From contig CAXTYC010000058.1 of NCBI GenBank assembly GCA_964248365.1, positions 1-19,006 on the forward strand: DNA of 19,006 bases. The letters are read 5' to 3'. Below the pieces are notes generated by a model, which was not told the DNA's origin, made no database searches, and saw nothing but the letters and a program-made list of their open reading frames with translations. Positions 1 to 12,796 of the stretch are shown here, in pieces. This stretch comes from an uncultured Chroococcidiopsis sp. (GTDB taxonomy: Bacteria > Cyanobacteriota > Cyanobacteriia > Cyanobacteriales > Chroococcidiopsidaceae). Numbering within the stretch: position 1 is the first letter of the stretch; the number at the start of each line of letters is the position of its first letter. Made by a program: the position numbers and the translations under genes.

Positions 1-81
1 TCATACGATTCAAAAGCTATTTTCATCACACCCTTTCCTCTTCCCCCTTTGCAAGTTTTTGTCCTGTACTAAGAAGCCTGA

Positions 82-136
82 CTTATTTTTTGTCGCCAAT
101 TCCAAGCTCTGTTTTTAGGACGGAAAATCCTGGGAA
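82..136 (+). repeat. Right half of the composite structured repeat; diverged direct repeat of 4332-4389
   Basis: CTTATTTTTTGTCGCCA (82-98) matches 4332-4348 at 16/17. TTTTTAGGACGGAAAATCCTGGGAA (112-136) matches 4365-4389 at 23/25. The partner left half would lie before the window. Confidence 0.85.
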
Positions 137-3836: not shown

Positions 3837-4389
3837 TGGGAATCCAATGTAACTCTAAAAAATGAGGGCGTGGGAGGCAAGGCTGGAAAAATATTGTCAG
3901 CTTTCTTTGGGAGATCTGTTGGCTCCAATGGCGTATTTGTTTTGTTATAGGGCTGACAATATTTTTTTGCGCCACTTCCAGACCTTGTATTCGAGTTGTT
4001 CGCAGCATGGGTGATCTATTTTGAAGGCAAGGGAGGCAAGGCTTGAAAAATAAGGACAGGCATCAGTGGTATTCGGTTGTGCATAACAGATTTACACTTG
4101 GCGCAAAAAAAATAAATCCAGCCGAGAGTTCTTTTTCTAAAAATAAAGCGGTCCTTGTTTTGAGGTTATCTGCTTGTCCCAACGCGGATCTATTATGAAG
4201 GCTGCCCTTATTTTTAGAGAGCCATTGGAAGCCTTCAAGGGGGAATATGGGTGGTGAACGAGAGATCTTTAATCAACGGCTGGATTTATTTTTTCAAGCC
4301 TTCCTTTAGTCTGTTTTGTATTAAGCAATTCCTTATTTTTTGTTGCCACGTTCTATGCCCTCATTTTTTAAGACGGAAAACCCTGGGAA
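3837..4389. repeat. Cluster of nested structured repeat elements (five inverted-repeat pairs with A-tract/T-tract cores)
   Basis: Perfect inverted pairs: 3856-3869/4357-4370 (14 bp), 3887-3901/3952-3966 (15 bp), 4046-4056/4330-4340 (11 bp), 4107-4124/4277-4294 (18 bp), 4136-4146/4208-4218 (11 bp). Direct repeats: 3872-3893/4031-4052 (21/22) and 4013-4028/4187-4202 (15/16). Confidence 0.9.
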
Positions 4390-6351: not shown

Positions 6352-9300
6352 ATGCAAATAAAAGATCGCAAATCGGGCAAACAGCAATTTCCTAAGATTA
6401 TTGATGCATTAACTACTGGGGTTGACATATTAGAAAAACCACCGCAGCGATTGCATTACTTCTTTGAACAACGCTGCGATCGCAATCCCAATGCTATTGC
6501 TTTAGTCTGTGAAAACGAGTATCTGAGCTACGCCCAGCTCGATGCACAAGCCAATCAGCTGGCTAACTACTTGGTAAGCCAAGGCATCAAACCTGGTAGC
6601 AAAGTCGGTATTTTGCTCGAACGCTCGGTTAACACCTATGTGGCGCTGCTGGGAGTACTCAAGTCCGGTGCTGCCTTTGTACCGCTTGATACATCCTTCC
6701 CCCAAGACCGCATTACTTACATTGCTTCTGATGCAGGACTCGACCTGCTAGTGACTAGGGCTAATTTGGACAGCCTGACTTCGAGGGTAAGCTGTCAAGT
6801 ACTGGCTCTCGACACTGCCTTAGCGATCGCCACCCAAAGTGCCGAGCGGATTGCACTGGGTGACAACTTAGACGCACTGGCTTACATTATTTATACTTCC
6901 GGTTCGACTGGGCGACCCAAGGGCGTGGCGGTCAATCATTCGAGTATCTGCAACTTCATCGCCGTGTGTACGCCCATCTACGGCGTAAGCAGCCGCGATC
7001 GCGTCTATCAAGGTATGACCATTGCCTTTGATTTCTCGATTGAGGAGATCTGGCCTACCTTCAAGGTTGGGGCAACTCTAATTGTTGGTCCCACCGACCA
7101 TAGACGACTTGGTGCGGGACTGACTGACTTCCTGGTCGAGCAGTCAATCACAGTTTTGTATTGCGTCCCAACCCTTCTAGCGACAGTCGAGCGGGATGTT
7201 CCGACAATACAAATCCTGCTCGTCGGCGGCGAAGCTTGTCCGCACGATTTGGTGAAGCGCTGGAGTAAGCCTGGTCGGCGGATTCTTAACACCTATGGTC
7301 CAACCGAAACAACTGTTAGTGCACTTTGGACTGAACTGGTGCCGGATAAACCAGTAACCATTGGCAGACCGCTACCAACTTACAGCGCCTACATTCTTGA
7401 CGAGGCGCGGTGTCAAGTGCCAAGCGGGGAAACTGGGGAAATTTGCATCAGCGGCATTGGCGTGGCGTGTGGCTACGTCAACCTCCCAGAACTCACTGCT
7501 ACTAAGTTCGTCCCCGATCCGTTTGCCCCCAACGGTGGCGTAATGTACCGAACGGGCGACCTTGGTCGAATCACGCCATCGGGGGAAATCGAATATCTAG
7601 GTCGCATCGATAGCCAGGTGAAGATACGCGGCTACCGGATCGAATTGAGCGAAATCGAAGCGGTGTTGATGGAAAGCCCAGAAGTTAACAACGCGGTCGT
7701 TTCGCTCGTATCCATAGATGAGGCGGTTGGGGAACTGGCAGCTTACATTACACTGAGCGTCCCCACTACCGATTCAGAGGAATTGAAGCAACAGCTGCAC
7801 GAAATATTACGCGATCGCCTGCCCAGCTACCAGGTGCCAGCGTACATCCAGATTCTGGATCGCTTTCCCATGATGCCTAGCGGCAAGGTAGACCGCTCTA
7901 AGCTTCCTGTACCTCAAAAACGGCTTTCTACGCGATCGGGTGCTGTTCTGCCGCCAAATACGCTGCTTGAGCGCTCACTAGCTGCCGCTTGGCAAGATGC
8001 GTTCAAGCGCGATGACATCTCGGCCGAGGACAATTTTTTCCGCGAACTCGGCGGTCATTCCCTACTTGCTGCAAGGGTTATTTCCCATCTCAGGGAGAAC
8101 CCGAACCTAAAGCACTTGTCCATTGCCGATCTCTACTCTTACCCCACTATCCGCACCCTAGCAAGTCACATTGAGCAAACCGCAACGCCAAATGAGTCGC
8201 CCCAGGTATTGGAAGCTCAGCCCAAACGCCGCATCCGACGCTACAGCAGCTTACGGGTGGGGGCGATGGGAGCTATGCAAGTGTTGTTGCTTTATTTCCT
8301 ATTCGCCATCGTTGGAGCGCCAATAGCTTGGATAATGTCAGAACTGAGAAGCTTGCCGCTGCTTACTCTGACATTGGTGAGCGTCACTCTCCTCCCAATC
8401 ACCTGGCTGCTGTTCTCTCTAGGATTGCCAATTGCCGCAAAATGGCTGCTCATCGGTCGGTTCCGTCCTGGTCGTTACCCGCTGTGGGGTTGGTATTATT
8501 GTCGCTGGTGGTTGGTACGTAAGATTTTGACCCTAGCACCGCTCCCCTACTTCGCTGGATCGCCGCTGATGCCCTTATATTTCCGGCTGCTGGGCGGACG
8601 TGCTAGTCAAGAATGTTACATCGGCAGCGCCCAGTTACACCTTCCCGATTTGATCGAAATTGGCGATGGAGCTAGTATCGGCTATGGTGTTGAAATACAA
8701 CCATTTCTGATTGAGGACGGCTGGCTGTATCAAGCCCCGATCCAGATCGGAGCCAACGCCTTCATCGGTACTAACTCAGTCATCGAACTGGGTGGTAAGG
8801 TAGGTTGGGGGGCGCGGTTGCTCGAACAGTCCCTCGTGGCACGCGACCAAGCGATTCCAGAGCGTGAAACTTGGGCTGGAGTGCCGTCTAAACGCACCGC
8901 CAACGCTGACGCAGTTCTGGACGCAATGGCGGAAAAAAAGACACCGAAATCAAGCTGGTCGCCCGCGCTTTGGGTGGGATTTGCGCTTGGATTTGTCCTG
9001 CTGGAGGCGCTGCCGTTTTTCATGTTCCTTCCTGGACTAGCATTGCTAGGGATCGATTATGTTGATTTCAATGACGATCTGCTTTGGGTACTCGCTGGTA
9101 CGCCCGTTGCGGGTTTGCTGTTCGTGCTGAGCGCCTGTATCCTGGTGGCAGTGGGTAAGTGGTTGGTGATGCCAACTTCCCGAACGGGCATTTTCCCTTT
9201 GCGATCGCGTTTTGGTCTGCGTAAGTGGCTGGTTGACAAGCTCATGCTGACTAGTTTGACAGTTACCAATACACTCTACGCTACCTTGTATACGCTGCCC

Positions 9301-10350
9301 TGGTTGCGTTTACTGGGAGCTAAAATCGGGGCGAGGTCGGAAGTCTCTACCGTATCGCACATCGACCCTGGACTGCTGAGATTGGGGACCGAAAGTTTTG
9401 TTGCCGACTTTGCGACGATTGGTGCGGCAAGATATGACAACTCTTTCGTGGCGCTGGGCGCTACATCGCTTGGCAACCGCTGCTTCATTGGTAATGCAGC
9501 CTTGGTTCCGAGCAATACGCAACTAGGCGACAATAGCCTAATTGGTGTGCATTCGGTGCCACCAAGGGAACCTGTTAAACCTGGTACTTCCTGGCTTGGT
9601 TCACCACCTATCTTTCTGCCGCGCCGCCAAATAAATACTAGCTTCGACGATAGCTTTACCTTCCGACCTCCAGCGAAGCTAGTTGCTTGCCGTCTAGGGA
9701 TGGAGTTTTTGCGGGTTGTGCTGCCACCCAGTCTCATGTACTTGATGATCGCCGGAGATCTTCTAGAGATGCTGTGGCTTGCTCCCAGACTTTCAACGGC
9801 AATGCTCGTAGCGATCGCGCCAATACTATACTTTATTTCCGCCCTGGTCGTGACTTTATTAGTTGTGGCGTTAAAATGGCTCGTGGTCGGGCGCTATCGT
9901 CCTCGGATTGAGCCGCTTTGGTCTTTCTTTGTCTGGCGTAGCGAACTGATTACTGGACTATACGAAAGTGTAGCAGTGCCGTTGTTGCTGACGTGGTTCA
10001 CTGGCACACCACTGCTACCCGTGATGTTGCGCTGGTTCGGTGTCCGAATCGGTCGGCGGGTCTATATAGAAACGACATTCGTGACTGAATTCGACTTGGT
10101 TCGCGTCGAGAACGATGCCGCTATTGGCATATTAACATCGCTTCAGACCCATTTGTTTGAAGACCGAGTGATGAAAATGTCGAGGGTAACTATCGGTCGG
10201 GGTTGTACCGTTGGAGCGCGATCGGTGGTGTTGTACGATTCGGTAATGGAGGCAGGATCTCGTCTTGATGCACTGTCGCTGGTGATGAAGGGCGAAAAGT
10301 TGCCGCCCAATAGCCACTGGCGAGGCATCCCAGCGCGTTTGGTTGAATAA
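6352..10350 (+). CDS. Pls/PosA-family single-module non-ribosomal peptide synthetase (A-T-membrane terminal domain), 1332 aa
   Basis: A-domain motifs YTSGSTGRPKG, FDFS, NTYGPTE, YRTGD, QVKIRGYRIELSEIE and PSGKVDR. T domain LGGHSL (Ser codon 8059-8061). No C or TE domain. The C-terminal half has three repeats of transmembrane helices plus KW..G.(F/Y)RP-type motifs and hexapeptide LbH stretches, as in epsilon-poly-L-lysine synthetase. Confidence 0.93.
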   Translation: MQIKDRKSGKQQFPKIIDALTTGVDILEKPPQRLHYFFEQRCDRNPNAIALVCENEYLSYAQLDAQANQLANYLVSQGIKPGSKVGILLERSVNTYVALLGVLKSGAAFVPLDTSFPQDRITYIASDAGLDLLVTRANLDSLTSRVSCQVLALDTALAIATQSAERIALGDNLDALAYIIYTSGSTGRPKGVAVNHSSICNFIAVCTPIYGVSSRDRVYQGMTIAFDFSIEEIWPTFKVGATLIVGPTDHRRLGAGLTDFLVEQSITVLYCVPTLLATVERDVPTIQILLVGGEACPHDLVKRWSKPGRRILNTYGPTETTVSALWTELVPDKPVTIGRPLPTYSAYILDEARCQVPSGETGEICISGIGVACGYVNLPELTATKFVPDPFAPNGGVMYRTGDLGRITPSGEIEYLGRIDSQVKIRGYRIELSEIEAVLMESPEVNNAVVSLVSIDEAVGELAAYITLSVPTTDSEELKQQLHEILRDRLPSYQVPAYIQILDRFPMMPSGKVDRSKLPVPQKRLSTRSGAVLPPNTLLERSLAAAWQDAFKRDDISAEDNFFRELGGHSLLAARVISHLRENPNLKHLSIADLYSYPTIRTLASHIEQTATPNESPQVLEAQPKRRIRRYSSLRVGAMGAMQVLLLYFLFAIVGAPIAWIMSELRSLPLLTLTLVSVTLLPITWLLFSLGLPIAAKWLLIGRFRPGRYPLWGWYYCRWWLVRKILTLAPLPYFAGSPLMPLYFRLLGGRASQECYIGSAQLHLPDLIEIGDGASIGYGVEIQPFLIEDGWLYQAPIQIGANAFIGTNSVIELGGKVGWGARLLEQSLVARDQAIPERETWAGVPSKRTANADAVLDAMAEKKTPKSSWSPALWVGFALGFVLLEALPFFMFLPGLALLGIDYVDFNDDLLWVLAGTPVAGLLFVLSACILVAVGKWLVMPTSRTGIFPLRSRFGLRKWLVDKLMLTSLTVTNTLYATLYTLPWLRLLGAKIGARSEVSTVSHIDPGLLRLGTESFVADFATIGAARYDNSFVALGATSLGNRCFIGNAALVPSNTQLGDNSLIGVHSVPPREPVKPGTSWLGSPPIFLPRRQINTSFDDSFTFRPPAKLVACRLGMEFLRVVLPPSLMYLMIAGDLLEMLWLAPRLSTAMLVAIAPILYFISALVVTLLVVALKWLVVGRYRPRIEPLWSFFVWRSELITGLYESVAVPLLLTWFTGTPLLPVMLRWFGVRIGRRVYIETTFVTEFDLVRVENDAAIGILTSLQTHLFEDRVMKMSRVTIGRGCTVGARSVVLYDSVMEAGSRLDALSLVMKGEKLPPNSHWRGIPARLVE

Positions 10351-10476
10351 TAATATTGTCCTGAGCGATCGCCAATATCTGCGTAACTTTAGCGATCGCA
10401 CCAATGCCCCTTGTCGCGTTGGTATTCTCCACATCTTGCATCAGTATCTAAATAGATCTTTTCAAGAAATTAAAAG

Positions 10477-11199
10477 ATGAAACTTATAACAGTAATTAAT
10501 TTCTTGGTGATACTTCTGGTTTTATTGCCGATATCTCAGGTTCAGGCATCCTCAAATCAGTATGCACTAATATATAAGGGACCTGGAAGCTGCCCAGGAT
10601 GTCCTGAAGCTGCGGCAAGAATTGCAGCCAGACTTCAATTGCCAATCCGATACATTGAACCTGGTAGTTTGACTACAAAAACTTTTTCAAATGCGGCTGT
10701 TTATATTCAAGCTGGCGGCGATGATAGTCTTGACATTAAGAAAGCTTTATCTGCTGAAGAAATATCGGCATTGAAAAATTATGTGAAAACAGGTGGACGC
10801 TATTGGGGTCTTTGTGCGGGTGCCTATTTTGCTGGTGAAACCCTAGATGATGAAGGCAAAGTTGAGGGACTTAGTATTATACCAGGAGATGCCGAACCAT
10901 ATACGCGATCGCATAAGCCTCGCGTAGAATTAGTGACATGGCAAGGTCAAAAAAGACAAATGTATCTCCAAGACGCTCCTCGGTTCCGCCTCCAGGCAGA
11001 CGCTAAAGTAATTCCAATTGCTTACTATAACAATGGTTCAATTGCAGCTTTCATTTCTGATTATGGTAAAGGCAAAGTAGCGGTTTGTGGTCCTCACCCT
11101 GAAGCTGATTATGCATGGTTTGACAAGGATGGACTTTCTCGCCCTGCTGCTCTTAGCCAAGATCTGGCGGTCGAAATGTTACGCGAACTGCTGCGGTAA
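10477..11199 (+). CDS. Secreted BPL_N / class I glutamine amidotransferase-fold protein (240 aa)
   Basis: N-terminal signal peptide (MKLITVINFLVILLVLLPISQVQA), QAGGDD oxyanion-like strand, nucleophile elbow GLCAGAY (Cys 10813-10815), GPHPE His-Glu (11095-11103) and a CPGC motif. Confidence 0.85.
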   Translation: MKLITVINFLVILLVLLPISQVQASSNQYALIYKGPGSCPGCPEAAARIAARLQLPIRYIEPGSLTTKTFSNAAVYIQAGGDDSLDIKKALSAEEISALKNYVKTGGRYWGLCAGAYFAGETLDDEGKVEGLSIIPGDAEPYTRSHKPRVELVTWQGQKRQMYLQDAPRFRLQADAKVIPIAYYNNGSIAAFISDYGKGKVAVCGPHPEADYAWFDKDGLSRPAALSQDLAVEMLRELLR

Positions 11200-11214
11200 A
11201 TACTAAAAAATTTT

Positions 11215-12128
11215 GGTCGTGCAGGGCGCAAGCGTAGGACTGCTAGACTGAAGCATTGTGTAGTCGATCACTAGCAGAACAATGAAATGTCCCCTGTGCG
11301 GTCATGAAAAACCACATAAGCATGGCTTGACGAGTAAAGGGAGCCAACGCTACTTCTGTAGCAAATGTACACAAACCTTCACTGATACCTTTGATACGCT
11401 GTATTACCGACGGCAAGTGAGCGAGGAAGATGTGCGGATTGTACTGCAATCCCATGAGTCTCGGCAGCCGTTTACGAAGCATTAGTCGGATCAGCGGTTT
11501 AGCCTATGATACAGTTGTCAGCATCGTGCAAGCAGCGGCTCAGAAAGCGCAAATGGTACACAATAGCCAGGTAAAAAATGTCGATACAGATGCCATTGCA
11601 GCAGATGAGTTGTGGTCATTTGTAGAAAAAAACAAAAACACTGCTTACCCCAAGAGCTAGAAGCTGGAGATTGTTGGATAGCCGTAAGTTTGGCACAGCC
11701 CTTGTGGTCTGCTCCTATGTGGTCGTATAGGCAAGCATACCGACGAGTTAGCTCAGGAATTGGTAACTAGTACCCAAGGCAAGACTAGCTGTAAGGAATG
11801 GCACACCGATGGCTGGAGCGGATACTCGCTGTGCGCTTTGTAATGATGAGATAGAGCACTATATTAGCAAAACTTTGACACAACGTGTAGAGCCAACCAA
11901 CGGTATTGTGCGTCAACAGACTGGGCGCTGGCATCGACAACAAAATAAATTCAGCAAGTTATGGGGGCGTGCCTGAGCTAATTATGCGGTTAGTGGTAAG
12001 CTACTTCAACTGGATCTGGCGGCATTCCTGCTTAGGGACTATAGCGGCGTGGGCGTGCACAATTAACTCAAAGACCTTGGACTTGGAACGACATCGCTAC
12101 CTATCCCACGCTTTTGTATGGCACGACC
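11215..12128 (+). mobile_element. IS1-family insertion sequence, 914 bp, degenerate
   Basis: Terminal inverted repeats GGTCGTGCAGGGCGCAAGCGTAGGA and (reverse complement) GGTCGTGCCATACAAAAGCGTGGGA match at 18/25 and enclose an InsA/InsB-type coding region. No clean target-site duplication. Confidence 0.9.
11282..12120 (+). pseudogene. IS1-family transposase (InsA/InsB-type) with disabling frameshifts
   Basis: Zinc ribbon CPLC...CSKC, HTH SLRSISRISG, DELWSFV, A7C slippery site at 11626-11633, then TDGW and QRVEPTNGIVRQQTGRWHR. Extra frameshifts near 11460, 11700 and 11830. End coordinate approximate. Confidence 0.85.
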
Positions 12129-12226
12129 AAATACTTTCCAATCGGTTCAATGGGCAAATAGTCATCGCCTAGTACCATCCAGATCTGCTGATGGGAATCT
12201 GGGAGGAGTCCCTTTTGCACTTTCAT
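12129..12226 (-). pseudogene. 5' stump of a Tn554 TnpA-like tyrosine recombinase gene, truncated by the IS1
   Basis: GGAGAG then ATG at 12226 reads MKVQKGLLPDSHQQIWMVLGDDYLPIEPIGKYL, which I recognise as the N-terminus of cyanobacterial Tn554-type integrases (W.VL.DDYLPIEPI..YL). It ends at the IS1 right end. Confidence 0.75.
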
Positions 12227-12395
12227 GGCTGGCTCTCTCCAATAACGCTATTAACATTATAGAGTTAAAATAATAAATTATTAAACAGTTTACATATCGT
12301 TGCTAAAAAGGTTCGTCTGAGCTACGCTGTTGTTGTTGTTGTTATTTATAATTTAATAAGACTTATAATGAGGCAATAAATATTAGAAATGTACG

Positions 12396-12412
12396 CTTCG
12401 GCGTTGCCGAAG
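12396..12412. repeat. Small GC-rich hairpin resembling cyanobacterial short dispersed repeats
   Basis: CTTCGGC-GTT-GCCGAAG: a perfect 7 bp stem in AT-rich surroundings. Confidence 0.45.
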
Positions 12413-12473
12413 GCTAGGTCTGCGAATTTTAGCTTTAAGAACTAGCGCTTCTGCCCTTGGAGGGAATGTAAGA

Positions 12474-12590
12474 CCCTGGGTTTTCCGTCTTAAAAAGTAG
12501 AGGCAACCCTGTTTTAAAGATCCCCACTATGTACGAGAAATACTGATGATGAGGGTTGCCTCTATTTTTTAGGGTTCCATCGGATTCCCA
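12474..12590 (-). repeat. Short (117 bp) copy of the structured element whose long nested form is 3837-4387, in opposite orientation
   Basis: The reverse complement of 12564-12590 matches 3837-3863 at 24/27. 12474-12496 matches the reverse complement of 4365-4387 at 22/23. Internal inverted repeat 12491-12510/12552-12571 at 19/20. Confidence 0.9.
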
Positions 12591-12796
12591 AGTTTTCAGG
12601 ACGTAAAAAATCTATGAAAACAGAGGCAATCCCCCGTGATTGGGAACCCTACACTGACCTGAGTGTGAGCGTGTAGGTAGTTCACAAGGCTACAACGACC
12701 CAATGGCATCACAGCTGCAACAGAAAATTGTCTCTCCTCCCCAGTGGTCAATACATAAAACGGCATATTCACACGAACTTGACTTTAAAAAGACAT

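Follow-up and report, generated by a model that had tools for sequence, protein, structure and literature searches.

The DNA at positions 12476-12589 of the window, by which we mean the whole 19,006-nt stretch of an uncultured Chroococcidiopsis sp. contig analysed here, is a member of a dispersed, non-coding and gene-less family of short repeats. The unit consists of an end A, an arm of 18-20 bp, a loop of about 41 nt, the mirror arm and an end B; its copies are insertions, and the arm sequence is hypervariable while self-complementary. Tentatively, and at slightly less than even confidence, we favour the explanation that this 113-bp non-coding nesting unit, with its 2-3 bp core, is non-autonomous and serves as the substrate of a trans-acting tyrosine recombinase of the relaxed-overlap type. 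The parts of the copy are as follows.

12474..12475, + strand: CC core of the left junction, on the target side, present also in the empty form (the X1 and X3 joints start from 12475, see below)
12476..12490, + strand: end A, which is not an inverted repeat of end B
12491..12510, + strand: left arm with A-tract, variable 9 nt and CC; the equivalent position is an insertion site in other copies
12511..12551, + strand: loop of 41 nt in which two repeated motifs are spaced by about 20 nt; orientation Y-X relative to end A
12552..12571, + strand: right arm, reverse complement of the left at 19/20 positions, from inverted-repeat detection
12572..12589, + strand: end B, ending in the donor-type junction ATTCC(C), from end and junction comparison

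A sequence-only reading had described a 117-bp copy of a longer element at 3837-4387; the element itself was confirmed and its inserted length corrected to 113-114 bp (12476-12589). The reported likeness of the ends was reproduced, with 24/27 for the B end in a direct comparison and 22/23 for the A end by blastn, and the inverted arms 12491-12510 and 12552-12571 are 95% complementary and 41 nt apart. Its interior had been called unrelated, which holds pairwise against the long copy's own loop (alignment scores -8 and -3) but not within the family, where it is an ordinary loop, closest to that at G000:C7:146800 in the same genome (score 15; best of 200 shuffles 4), and the whole unit shares 78.8% identity with that locus over 118 nt. 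The single-stranded DNA fold of 12474..12590 has z = -3.4 and -3.6 on the two strands, equalled by 1 of 200 shuffles on each, and no Rfam match reached the gathering score in the window. The DNA hosting the copy, window 12371-12700, ends in a motif shared with contig C12 of the same genome near 8850 and resembles an IS200/IS605 right-end remnant.

The family is abundant in the window's own genome (G000; 5.58 Mb, 43% GC, 102 contigs); HIP1 repeats, a cyanobacterial mark, occur in the window. A weight matrix of the A end gave 41 matches at 15 bits or more against 9 in a reversed-genome control, and 17 A-B pairs measure 113-118 bp, the remaining pairs ranging from 54 bp to more than 500 bp. A model-free scan found 92 A-tract-bounded inverted repeats, 62 of them of 70-84 nt, against none in shuffled DNA, and a profile recovered 62 simple units, 58 of which are distinct. 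All share one grammar, namely a left end, an A-tract, a variable arm closing in CC, the loop, the mirror arm and a right end, and similar loops are used by several end subfamilies. The outer ends are lineage-specific: the A-end pattern with up to 2 mismatches was found in none of 30 relatives, though in G014 and G005 the family occurs with different ends.

With a covariance model, matches were obtained in 3 of 27 same-family genomes (21 in G014, 7 in G005, 1 in G511) and also in G073 (17), G148 (2) and G003 (1), the blanks of model searches over 150 genomes being weak, as each search scored only 29 candidates; a match in G147 looks like a terminator and was set aside. Pattern searches gave 69 matches in G073 and 58-59 in G014. 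Narrow loop patterns run over 400 genomes of the phylum revealed no further expansion, with matches in 15 and 5 genomes; of 21 such loci checked, arms were present at only one, where they were HIP1. The exact A end had a single match across GTDB, in a spirochaete coding region and judged to be chance; the metagenome scan returned four matches, one of them real (L114), the viral scan three, all by chance, and the plasmid search none. The family is patchy, bursting in repeat-rich genomes. As separate observations, one G014 unit (L290-L329) rides on a larger repeated element that is present in at least 36 identical copies and ends in GAACGGTTAC, an end which we take to be IS66-like, and some units lie within or adjoin group II intron sequence (G073 L222-L224; G000:C40:45324, C68:8329 and C37:23487), where some may be passengers and some intron targets.

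The symmetry of the arms is a property of each unit. Among 58 units, identity between the two arms of one unit is 0.79-0.98 over 17 positions, 0.66 at position 18 and at chance level from position 19, whereas the variable arm positions agree across units at only 0.28-0.49. The same 58 units contain 50 different variable 9-mers, and 31 have no mismatch there. Compensatory change, raised as a check in the sequence-only reading, is evident in aligned copies, with 61 two-sided changes against 19.5 in shuffled ones, a count from 22 copies that is inflated by their relatedness. The geometry holds even in G014, where the A-tract itself is replaced and arms of 17-20 bp and loops of 39-45 nt are retained. 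The proposal that the unit is defined by its ends and its foldability, and not by simple duplication, is supported as to the ends and the fixed hairpin geometry, and selection on folding itself is only one possible source of the symmetry: arm mismatches comprise 24 G-T and 21 A-C pairs, so there is no G-U bias, and recombination or template switching between the arms could equally produce the symmetry. The stem being perfect, both strands fold alike.

The loop occurs in both orientations, with 7 X-Y and 10 Y-X among 17 A/B units of G000 (two ambiguous) and 14 against 9 among 28 units of G073, 5 being unlabelled. A direct flip pair is formed by G073 L219 and L220, which have the same arm, a nearly identical end A and loops that differ by 1 nt and lie in opposite orientation, and two arm types are found in all four pairings among near-identical TA-core copies. 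Frequent spontaneous flipping is disfavoured, since none of 37 identical G014 copies was flipped (40 fetched of about 58; 36 of them ride in the larger repeated element).

The junctions follow a rule of their own. At the present copy the left junction reads AGACC and the right ATTCC, with only the CC core common to both, so the ATT at the right junction came with the unit. In 27 G073 units the left and right sides match at letters 2 and 3 before the junction with frequencies of 0.96 and 0.89, compared with 0.35 and 0.41 between units; C stands at letter 1 in 24 of the 27, and letters 4-7 are at chance. In 32 G000 units, compared at fixed offsets that are imperfect for one subfamily, agreement of the two sides at positions -5 to -2 is 0.59-0.69 against 0.32-0.52. 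Partial matches extend to 5-6 bp. At the right junction the three letters before the core differ among close copies, and the CATTG beyond these letters is nearly constant. The target consensus, from 23 units, is TTCC(C)A, about 6 nt. The core is inherited by subfamily (CC, CT, TA, TG, GA or TT), and two empty sites place the crossover in different registers of CCC. Terminal inverted repeats are absent, as ends A and B differ and the inverted repeat begins 15-18 nt inside, and there is no plain target duplication, as generally only 2-3 letters match and the core follows the subfamily. A genomic B-to-A junction lies between tandem units at G000:C40:44248. From this footprint we infer exchange at a short matched core rather than target duplication.

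Filled and empty sites demonstrate that the copies are insertions. At the present locus, contigs of two public runs lack the unit, X3 joining 12475 to 12590 with one letter between and X1 joining 12475 to 12597 with eight between, the shorter side of the joint being only 27 nt at 88% likeness; these empty sites may be paralogous repeats, as the flank is repeated in those samples. Within the window's genome, the filled site G000:C7:146781 has an empty paralog at C41:31267 that aligns with no gap, and in G073 the filled L184 and the empty L180 differ by a net 114 bp with TTACC on both sides. A copy at G000:C12:6145-6260 splits the second integrase gene of a Tn554-type unit. That Tn554-type unit (G000:C12:4598-8482, L001) comprises two tyrosine recombinases and a DUF6262 gene, sits in a tnpB gene, and bears at one end the TTATGTCG motif common to some A-type ends. 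In G073, different units lie at C-runs of IS200/IS605 end regions (L350, L355 and L357, also L036, L038 and L062). The use of both the family's own arms and IS200/IS605 ends as targets hints at a preference for hairpin stems.

Nesting of units in one another is illustrated by the long copy and its surroundings.

3838..4387, - strand: long A/B copy with other family units inserted in both arms
4357-4387, 3982-4028 and 3838-3869, - strand: skeleton of the long copy, being end A with arm, own loop, and arm with end B, respectively (nesting dissection)
3870..3981, no strand assigned: simple unit, with ends of a different subfamily, within one of the long copy's arms (family unit comparison)
4029..4356, no strand assigned: composite of nested units in the other arm; the joint 4028-4356 is found in X1, with a side of only 20
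4124..4233, + strand: innermost A/B-like unit, inserted at AGCC within the arm of its host unit
1..134, - strand: a further end A, then a second subfamily end with arm, cut near the contig start (end scan)

Growth of the 551-bp copy by nested insertion, as had been supposed, is borne out, in that setting aside the inserts in both arms leaves a 110-bp skeleton of one ordinary unit; its length thus results from units inserting into each other's arms and loops. The more diverged third copy also proved real, spanning 4124-4233 with AGCC on either side (4120-4123 and 4230-4233) and matching at 13/18 as reported, and an additional A end at window 112-134 had been overlooked. The inner block 4091-4306 recurs at G000:C85:90-305 with 99.5% identity and different flanks. 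Nested units use the CC of other units' arms (G000:C64:12051, window 4124 and G073 L040), and insertion at the loop centres of other units yields a 52-bp period in G073. An X1 contig matching 2985-3859 with 6 differences carries end B followed by 231 unlike letters, which suggests that a close strain may have a different interior at the long-copy site.

Several unusual arrangements were noted besides. At G000:C37:35842-37142 a 1.1-kb stretch containing a small membrane-protein ORF is enclosed by two near-identical TA-core units in direct orientation, whose arms are reciprocal hybrids, the outcome expected if a cargo circle had integrated into a resident unit. A loop-less 54-bp unit at G000:C50:19011-19064 and a still shorter fusion of two ends at G000:C26:49114 are possible deletion or excision products. 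Inverted symmetry reaches past the arm at G073 L174:3773-3887 (35 bp, with B-type ends on both sides) and at G000:C22:45697-48920 (a 3.2-kb segment with inverted ends); both suggest occasional longer copying events.

The search for the enzyme covered several recombinase classes. A recombinase gene bounded by unit ends was found neither in G000 nor at 89 integrase loci, in assemblies that are fragmented, and no long inverted pair in G000 encloses a recombinase between unit ends. In one family of XerC-like plasmid integrases 2 of 30 loci have units nearby, as does 1 of 59 loci of Tn554/RIT-type TnpA and other tyrosine recombinases, and neither group was found to be linked. The three resolvase matches in G000 include no IS607-like TnpA; the one IS607 tnpA that adjoins a unit, in G073, appears to be interrupted by it, and the IS607 ends read here are unlike unit ends. 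PF01548, the IS110 DEDD domain, has no match in G000, and IS110 ends are likewise dissimilar at the three loci whose ends were read, 8 of the 12 fetched having been scanned. Integron integrase (TIGR02249) is absent from G000 and G073; a same-genus cyanobacterium carries a full one at G003:C1:4737719-4738660 (L257). Six of 30 Y1 loci have a unit within 1.5 kb, three of the units being 40-60 nt past the tnpA stop; these three differ from one another and sit inside the IS end region, and a Y1 gene with units as its own ends was rejected. The sole protein family recurring near units in three genomes is the group II intron reverse transcriptase (6 ORFs), which we read as hitch-hiking.

Our preferred tyrosine-recombinase reading is favoured by the variable window of about six letters before the junction, matched on one side only, as for IntDOT. 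For that enzyme two bases must match at the first exchange, and mismatch is tolerated at other positions, according to the available part of PMC2817482. By this mechanism ends B and A would join into a small circle, and the enzyme would exchange strands where two or three bases match the target. Mismatch would be tolerated, in IntDOT fashion, across the rest of an overlap of about 6 bp, and through this tolerance end B would come to carry letters of earlier targets. The loop flip would be an exchange between the two inverted arm sites, heteroduplex over the arms would copy one arm onto the other, and the fresh target sites brought by every unit would lead to nesting. Core sites of tyrosine recombinases are normally inverted, and the reading is weakened by the loop motifs of the family being direct repeats, as well as by the lack of a recombinase gene bounded by unit ends in the loci searched. 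The circle step is weakened by the tightness of a double-stranded circle of 113 bp, and the flip step by the lack of any flipped copy among the 37 identical G014 ones. Since arm symmetry of 18-20 bp exceeds a 6-8 bp overlap, branch migration or a second process is needed, and a pure 6-bp heteroduplex model was discarded in view of symmetry that spans 18 bp. A matched 2-bp core also suits serine and IS110 recombinases.

The main rival is a strict 2-bp-core enzyme, either an IS607-type serine recombinase or an IS110-type one with a trans guide RNA, with flips and arm symmetry left to polymerase template switching in the arms, an account that we consider unlikely. The A/B core on the opposite strand is GG, and IS607 inserts at (G)GG without duplication or, in the part of PMC6188088 available, any other target rule; IS110 uses a short core to recombine a circle, and in IS1111 the inverted repeats are sub-terminal and 7-17 bp long, both of which suit the strict-core account (PMC11208160, in part). 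A gene-less module moved in trans has a precedent in ISPpu9 (PMC12288879, in part), and template switching is described as homogenising arms and inverting spacers (PMC8604942, in part). However, G000 has neither an IS607-like TnpA among its three resolvase matches nor PF01548, the G073 IS607 tnpA appears interrupted by a unit, IS607 and IS110 ends are unlike unit ends, and the target consensus is not long enough to be set by an RNA guide; the three pre-core letters vary among close copies, and the partial matches reach 5-6 bp. The loop motifs were rejected as bridge-RNA guides, as the same motifs accompany every end type.

Third in rank, and improbable in our estimate, is an HUH enzyme (Y1, RAYT or IS200/IS605 TnpA-like) that reads the single-stranded hairpin, in which case folding would be selected. 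Stem and loop length are kept in G014 even with the A-tract replaced, 6 of 30 Y1 loci have family units within 1.5 kb, and in the canonical subfamily the stem foot at end A carries CGTC, as in CGTC-tagged REPs, for which the available part of PMC3733652 gives no known transposase; but those REPs have loops of 4-5 nt and are unreported in cyanobacteria in that same part. Moreover, the three post-tnpA units are flanked by IS-like sequence on both sides, resembling insertions into an IS end, the perfect stem folds alike on both strands, and by eye no letters of end, arm or loop followed the core in the manner of a guide. It is quite improbable that the unit is an ordinary MITE with a passive inner hairpin, mobilised by a DDE transposase that duplicates 2-3 bp of target: the non-coding nature, the length of about 113 bp, the dispersal in lineage-specific bursts and the three letters matching across the junction in most G073 units all agree with it, whereas the ends are not mutual inverted repeats, the core is inherited with the subfamily, AGACC on the left stands against ATTCC on the right, and the two empty sites cross over in different CCC registers. 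Least of all, and highly improbable, would the units be a host regulatory hairpin, such as a terminator or small RNA, spread by duplication rather than mobile; a T-tract follows the hairpin on both strands, but the filled/empty pairs are clean, sister strains already differ in part by presence or absence of insertions, insertions lie inside genes, no Rfam match reaches the gathering score, G-U bias is absent, and model matches occur in only 3/27 same-family genomes.

The tyrosine-recombinase reading finds its closest parallels in Tn554-type elements, whose right junction, as proposed for that of the unit, carries letters of earlier targets, and in CTnDOT, where IntDOT similarly uses a short matched core with unmatched neighbours (PMC2817482, in part). 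Both are kilobase-sized and encode their enzymes, in contrast to a 113-bp unit that has none linked and contains an internal invertible hairpin. Among cyanobacterial repeats, the MITEs Nezha and MaeMITE are likewise short, non-coding, dispersed and foldable, with filled and empty sites and dependence on an enzyme in trans; the unit departs from them in having sub-terminal hypervariable arms, a flipping loop and self-nesting and in being without terminal inverted repeats or target duplication (PMC3184786, in its available part). IS607 similarly has GG/CC at both ends, a (G)GG target, no duplication and no terminal inverted repeats in the available part of PMC6188088; matched GG is true of the A/B subfamily, but the core varies by subfamily (CC, CT, TA, TG, GA, TT), and unit ends are unlike local IS607 ends, with no IS607 TnpA found in G000. 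IS1111/IS110 and the ssr9 module of ISPpu9, so far as the sources cited above for them extend, share the short-core circle, sub-terminal inverted repeats, a gene-less module acting in trans and hairpin insertion, but the unit has a target of about 6 nt (23 units) instead of a bridge-RNA-set one of about 11 nt, no guide match was seen, the arms are variable rather than fixed, and no DEDD domain was found in G000. REP/REPIN and CGTC-tagged palindromes are comparable as clustered hairpin repeats with CGTC at the stem foot (in one subfamily of units) and no dedicated enzyme known in the available part of PMC3733652, where they are 20-40 bp with 4-5 nt loops and fixed stems, whereas the unit differs in its two distinct ends, its matched core and a loop of 41 nt that contains conserved motifs. 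Integron attC sites also keep geometry while sequence varies; units are instead dispersed without cassette arrays, insert themselves, and occur in G000 and G073 without an integron integrase.

The unit works like a non-autonomous integrative element yet fails the defining tests for MITEs, IS607, IS110, REPs and attC. Our literature search found no description of the family, which papers on cyanobacterial repeats could list. Non-autonomous elements are normally read by fixed terminal sequences, and here the main repeat varies freely in sequence and keeps its symmetry and length; the junction rule speaks for recombination and against cut-and-paste. Such units escape MITE finders keyed to terminal repeats and duplications; they also disrupt genes, fragment assemblies and may promote rearrangement of the genomes that they enter. 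Their anatomy offers a ready assay for the missing enzyme, which would be a recombinase of very low target demands. A further possibility, which we regard as doubtful, is that they represent a new minimal class of mobile DNA recognised by geometry, with two asymmetric ends, a 19-bp stem of nearly any sequence and a loop of 41 nt. Such DNA would be moved by an undescribed recombinase requiring only 2-3 matching bp; its arms would be flipped and rewritten, and nested arrays and small cargo cointegrates would be built. The enzyme would in that case be a compact insertion tool with a programmable core.

A role of the two copies in inverting or carrying the NRPS module between them had also been proposed.

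6352..10350, + strand: Pls/PosA-family NRPS gene between the copies, with no sign of being cargo

The inverted bracketing itself is correct, the long copy being on the - strand and the short one on the + strand with their A ends toward the gene. The role was not upheld: the 12475 site is empty in the X1 and X3 contigs, no strand change was seen among the 15 joints listed of 25, G000 has about 20 A/B pairs, with three A ends in the window alone, and IS1-like and Tn554-like remnants, lying between the gene and the short copy, flank it equally, the IS1 matches being below the cut-off. The bracketing looks coincidental. Window 12129-12370 is a Tn554-type 5′ end with the start of tnpA, identical (100% over 242 bp) to G000:C12:8385-8626, and is cut by the IS1-like remnant 11212-12131. 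Window 6352-11199, comprising the NRPS gene and a downstream gene with a BPL_N domain, has counterparts of about 90% identity in three metagenomes, from urban, air and biofilm samples.
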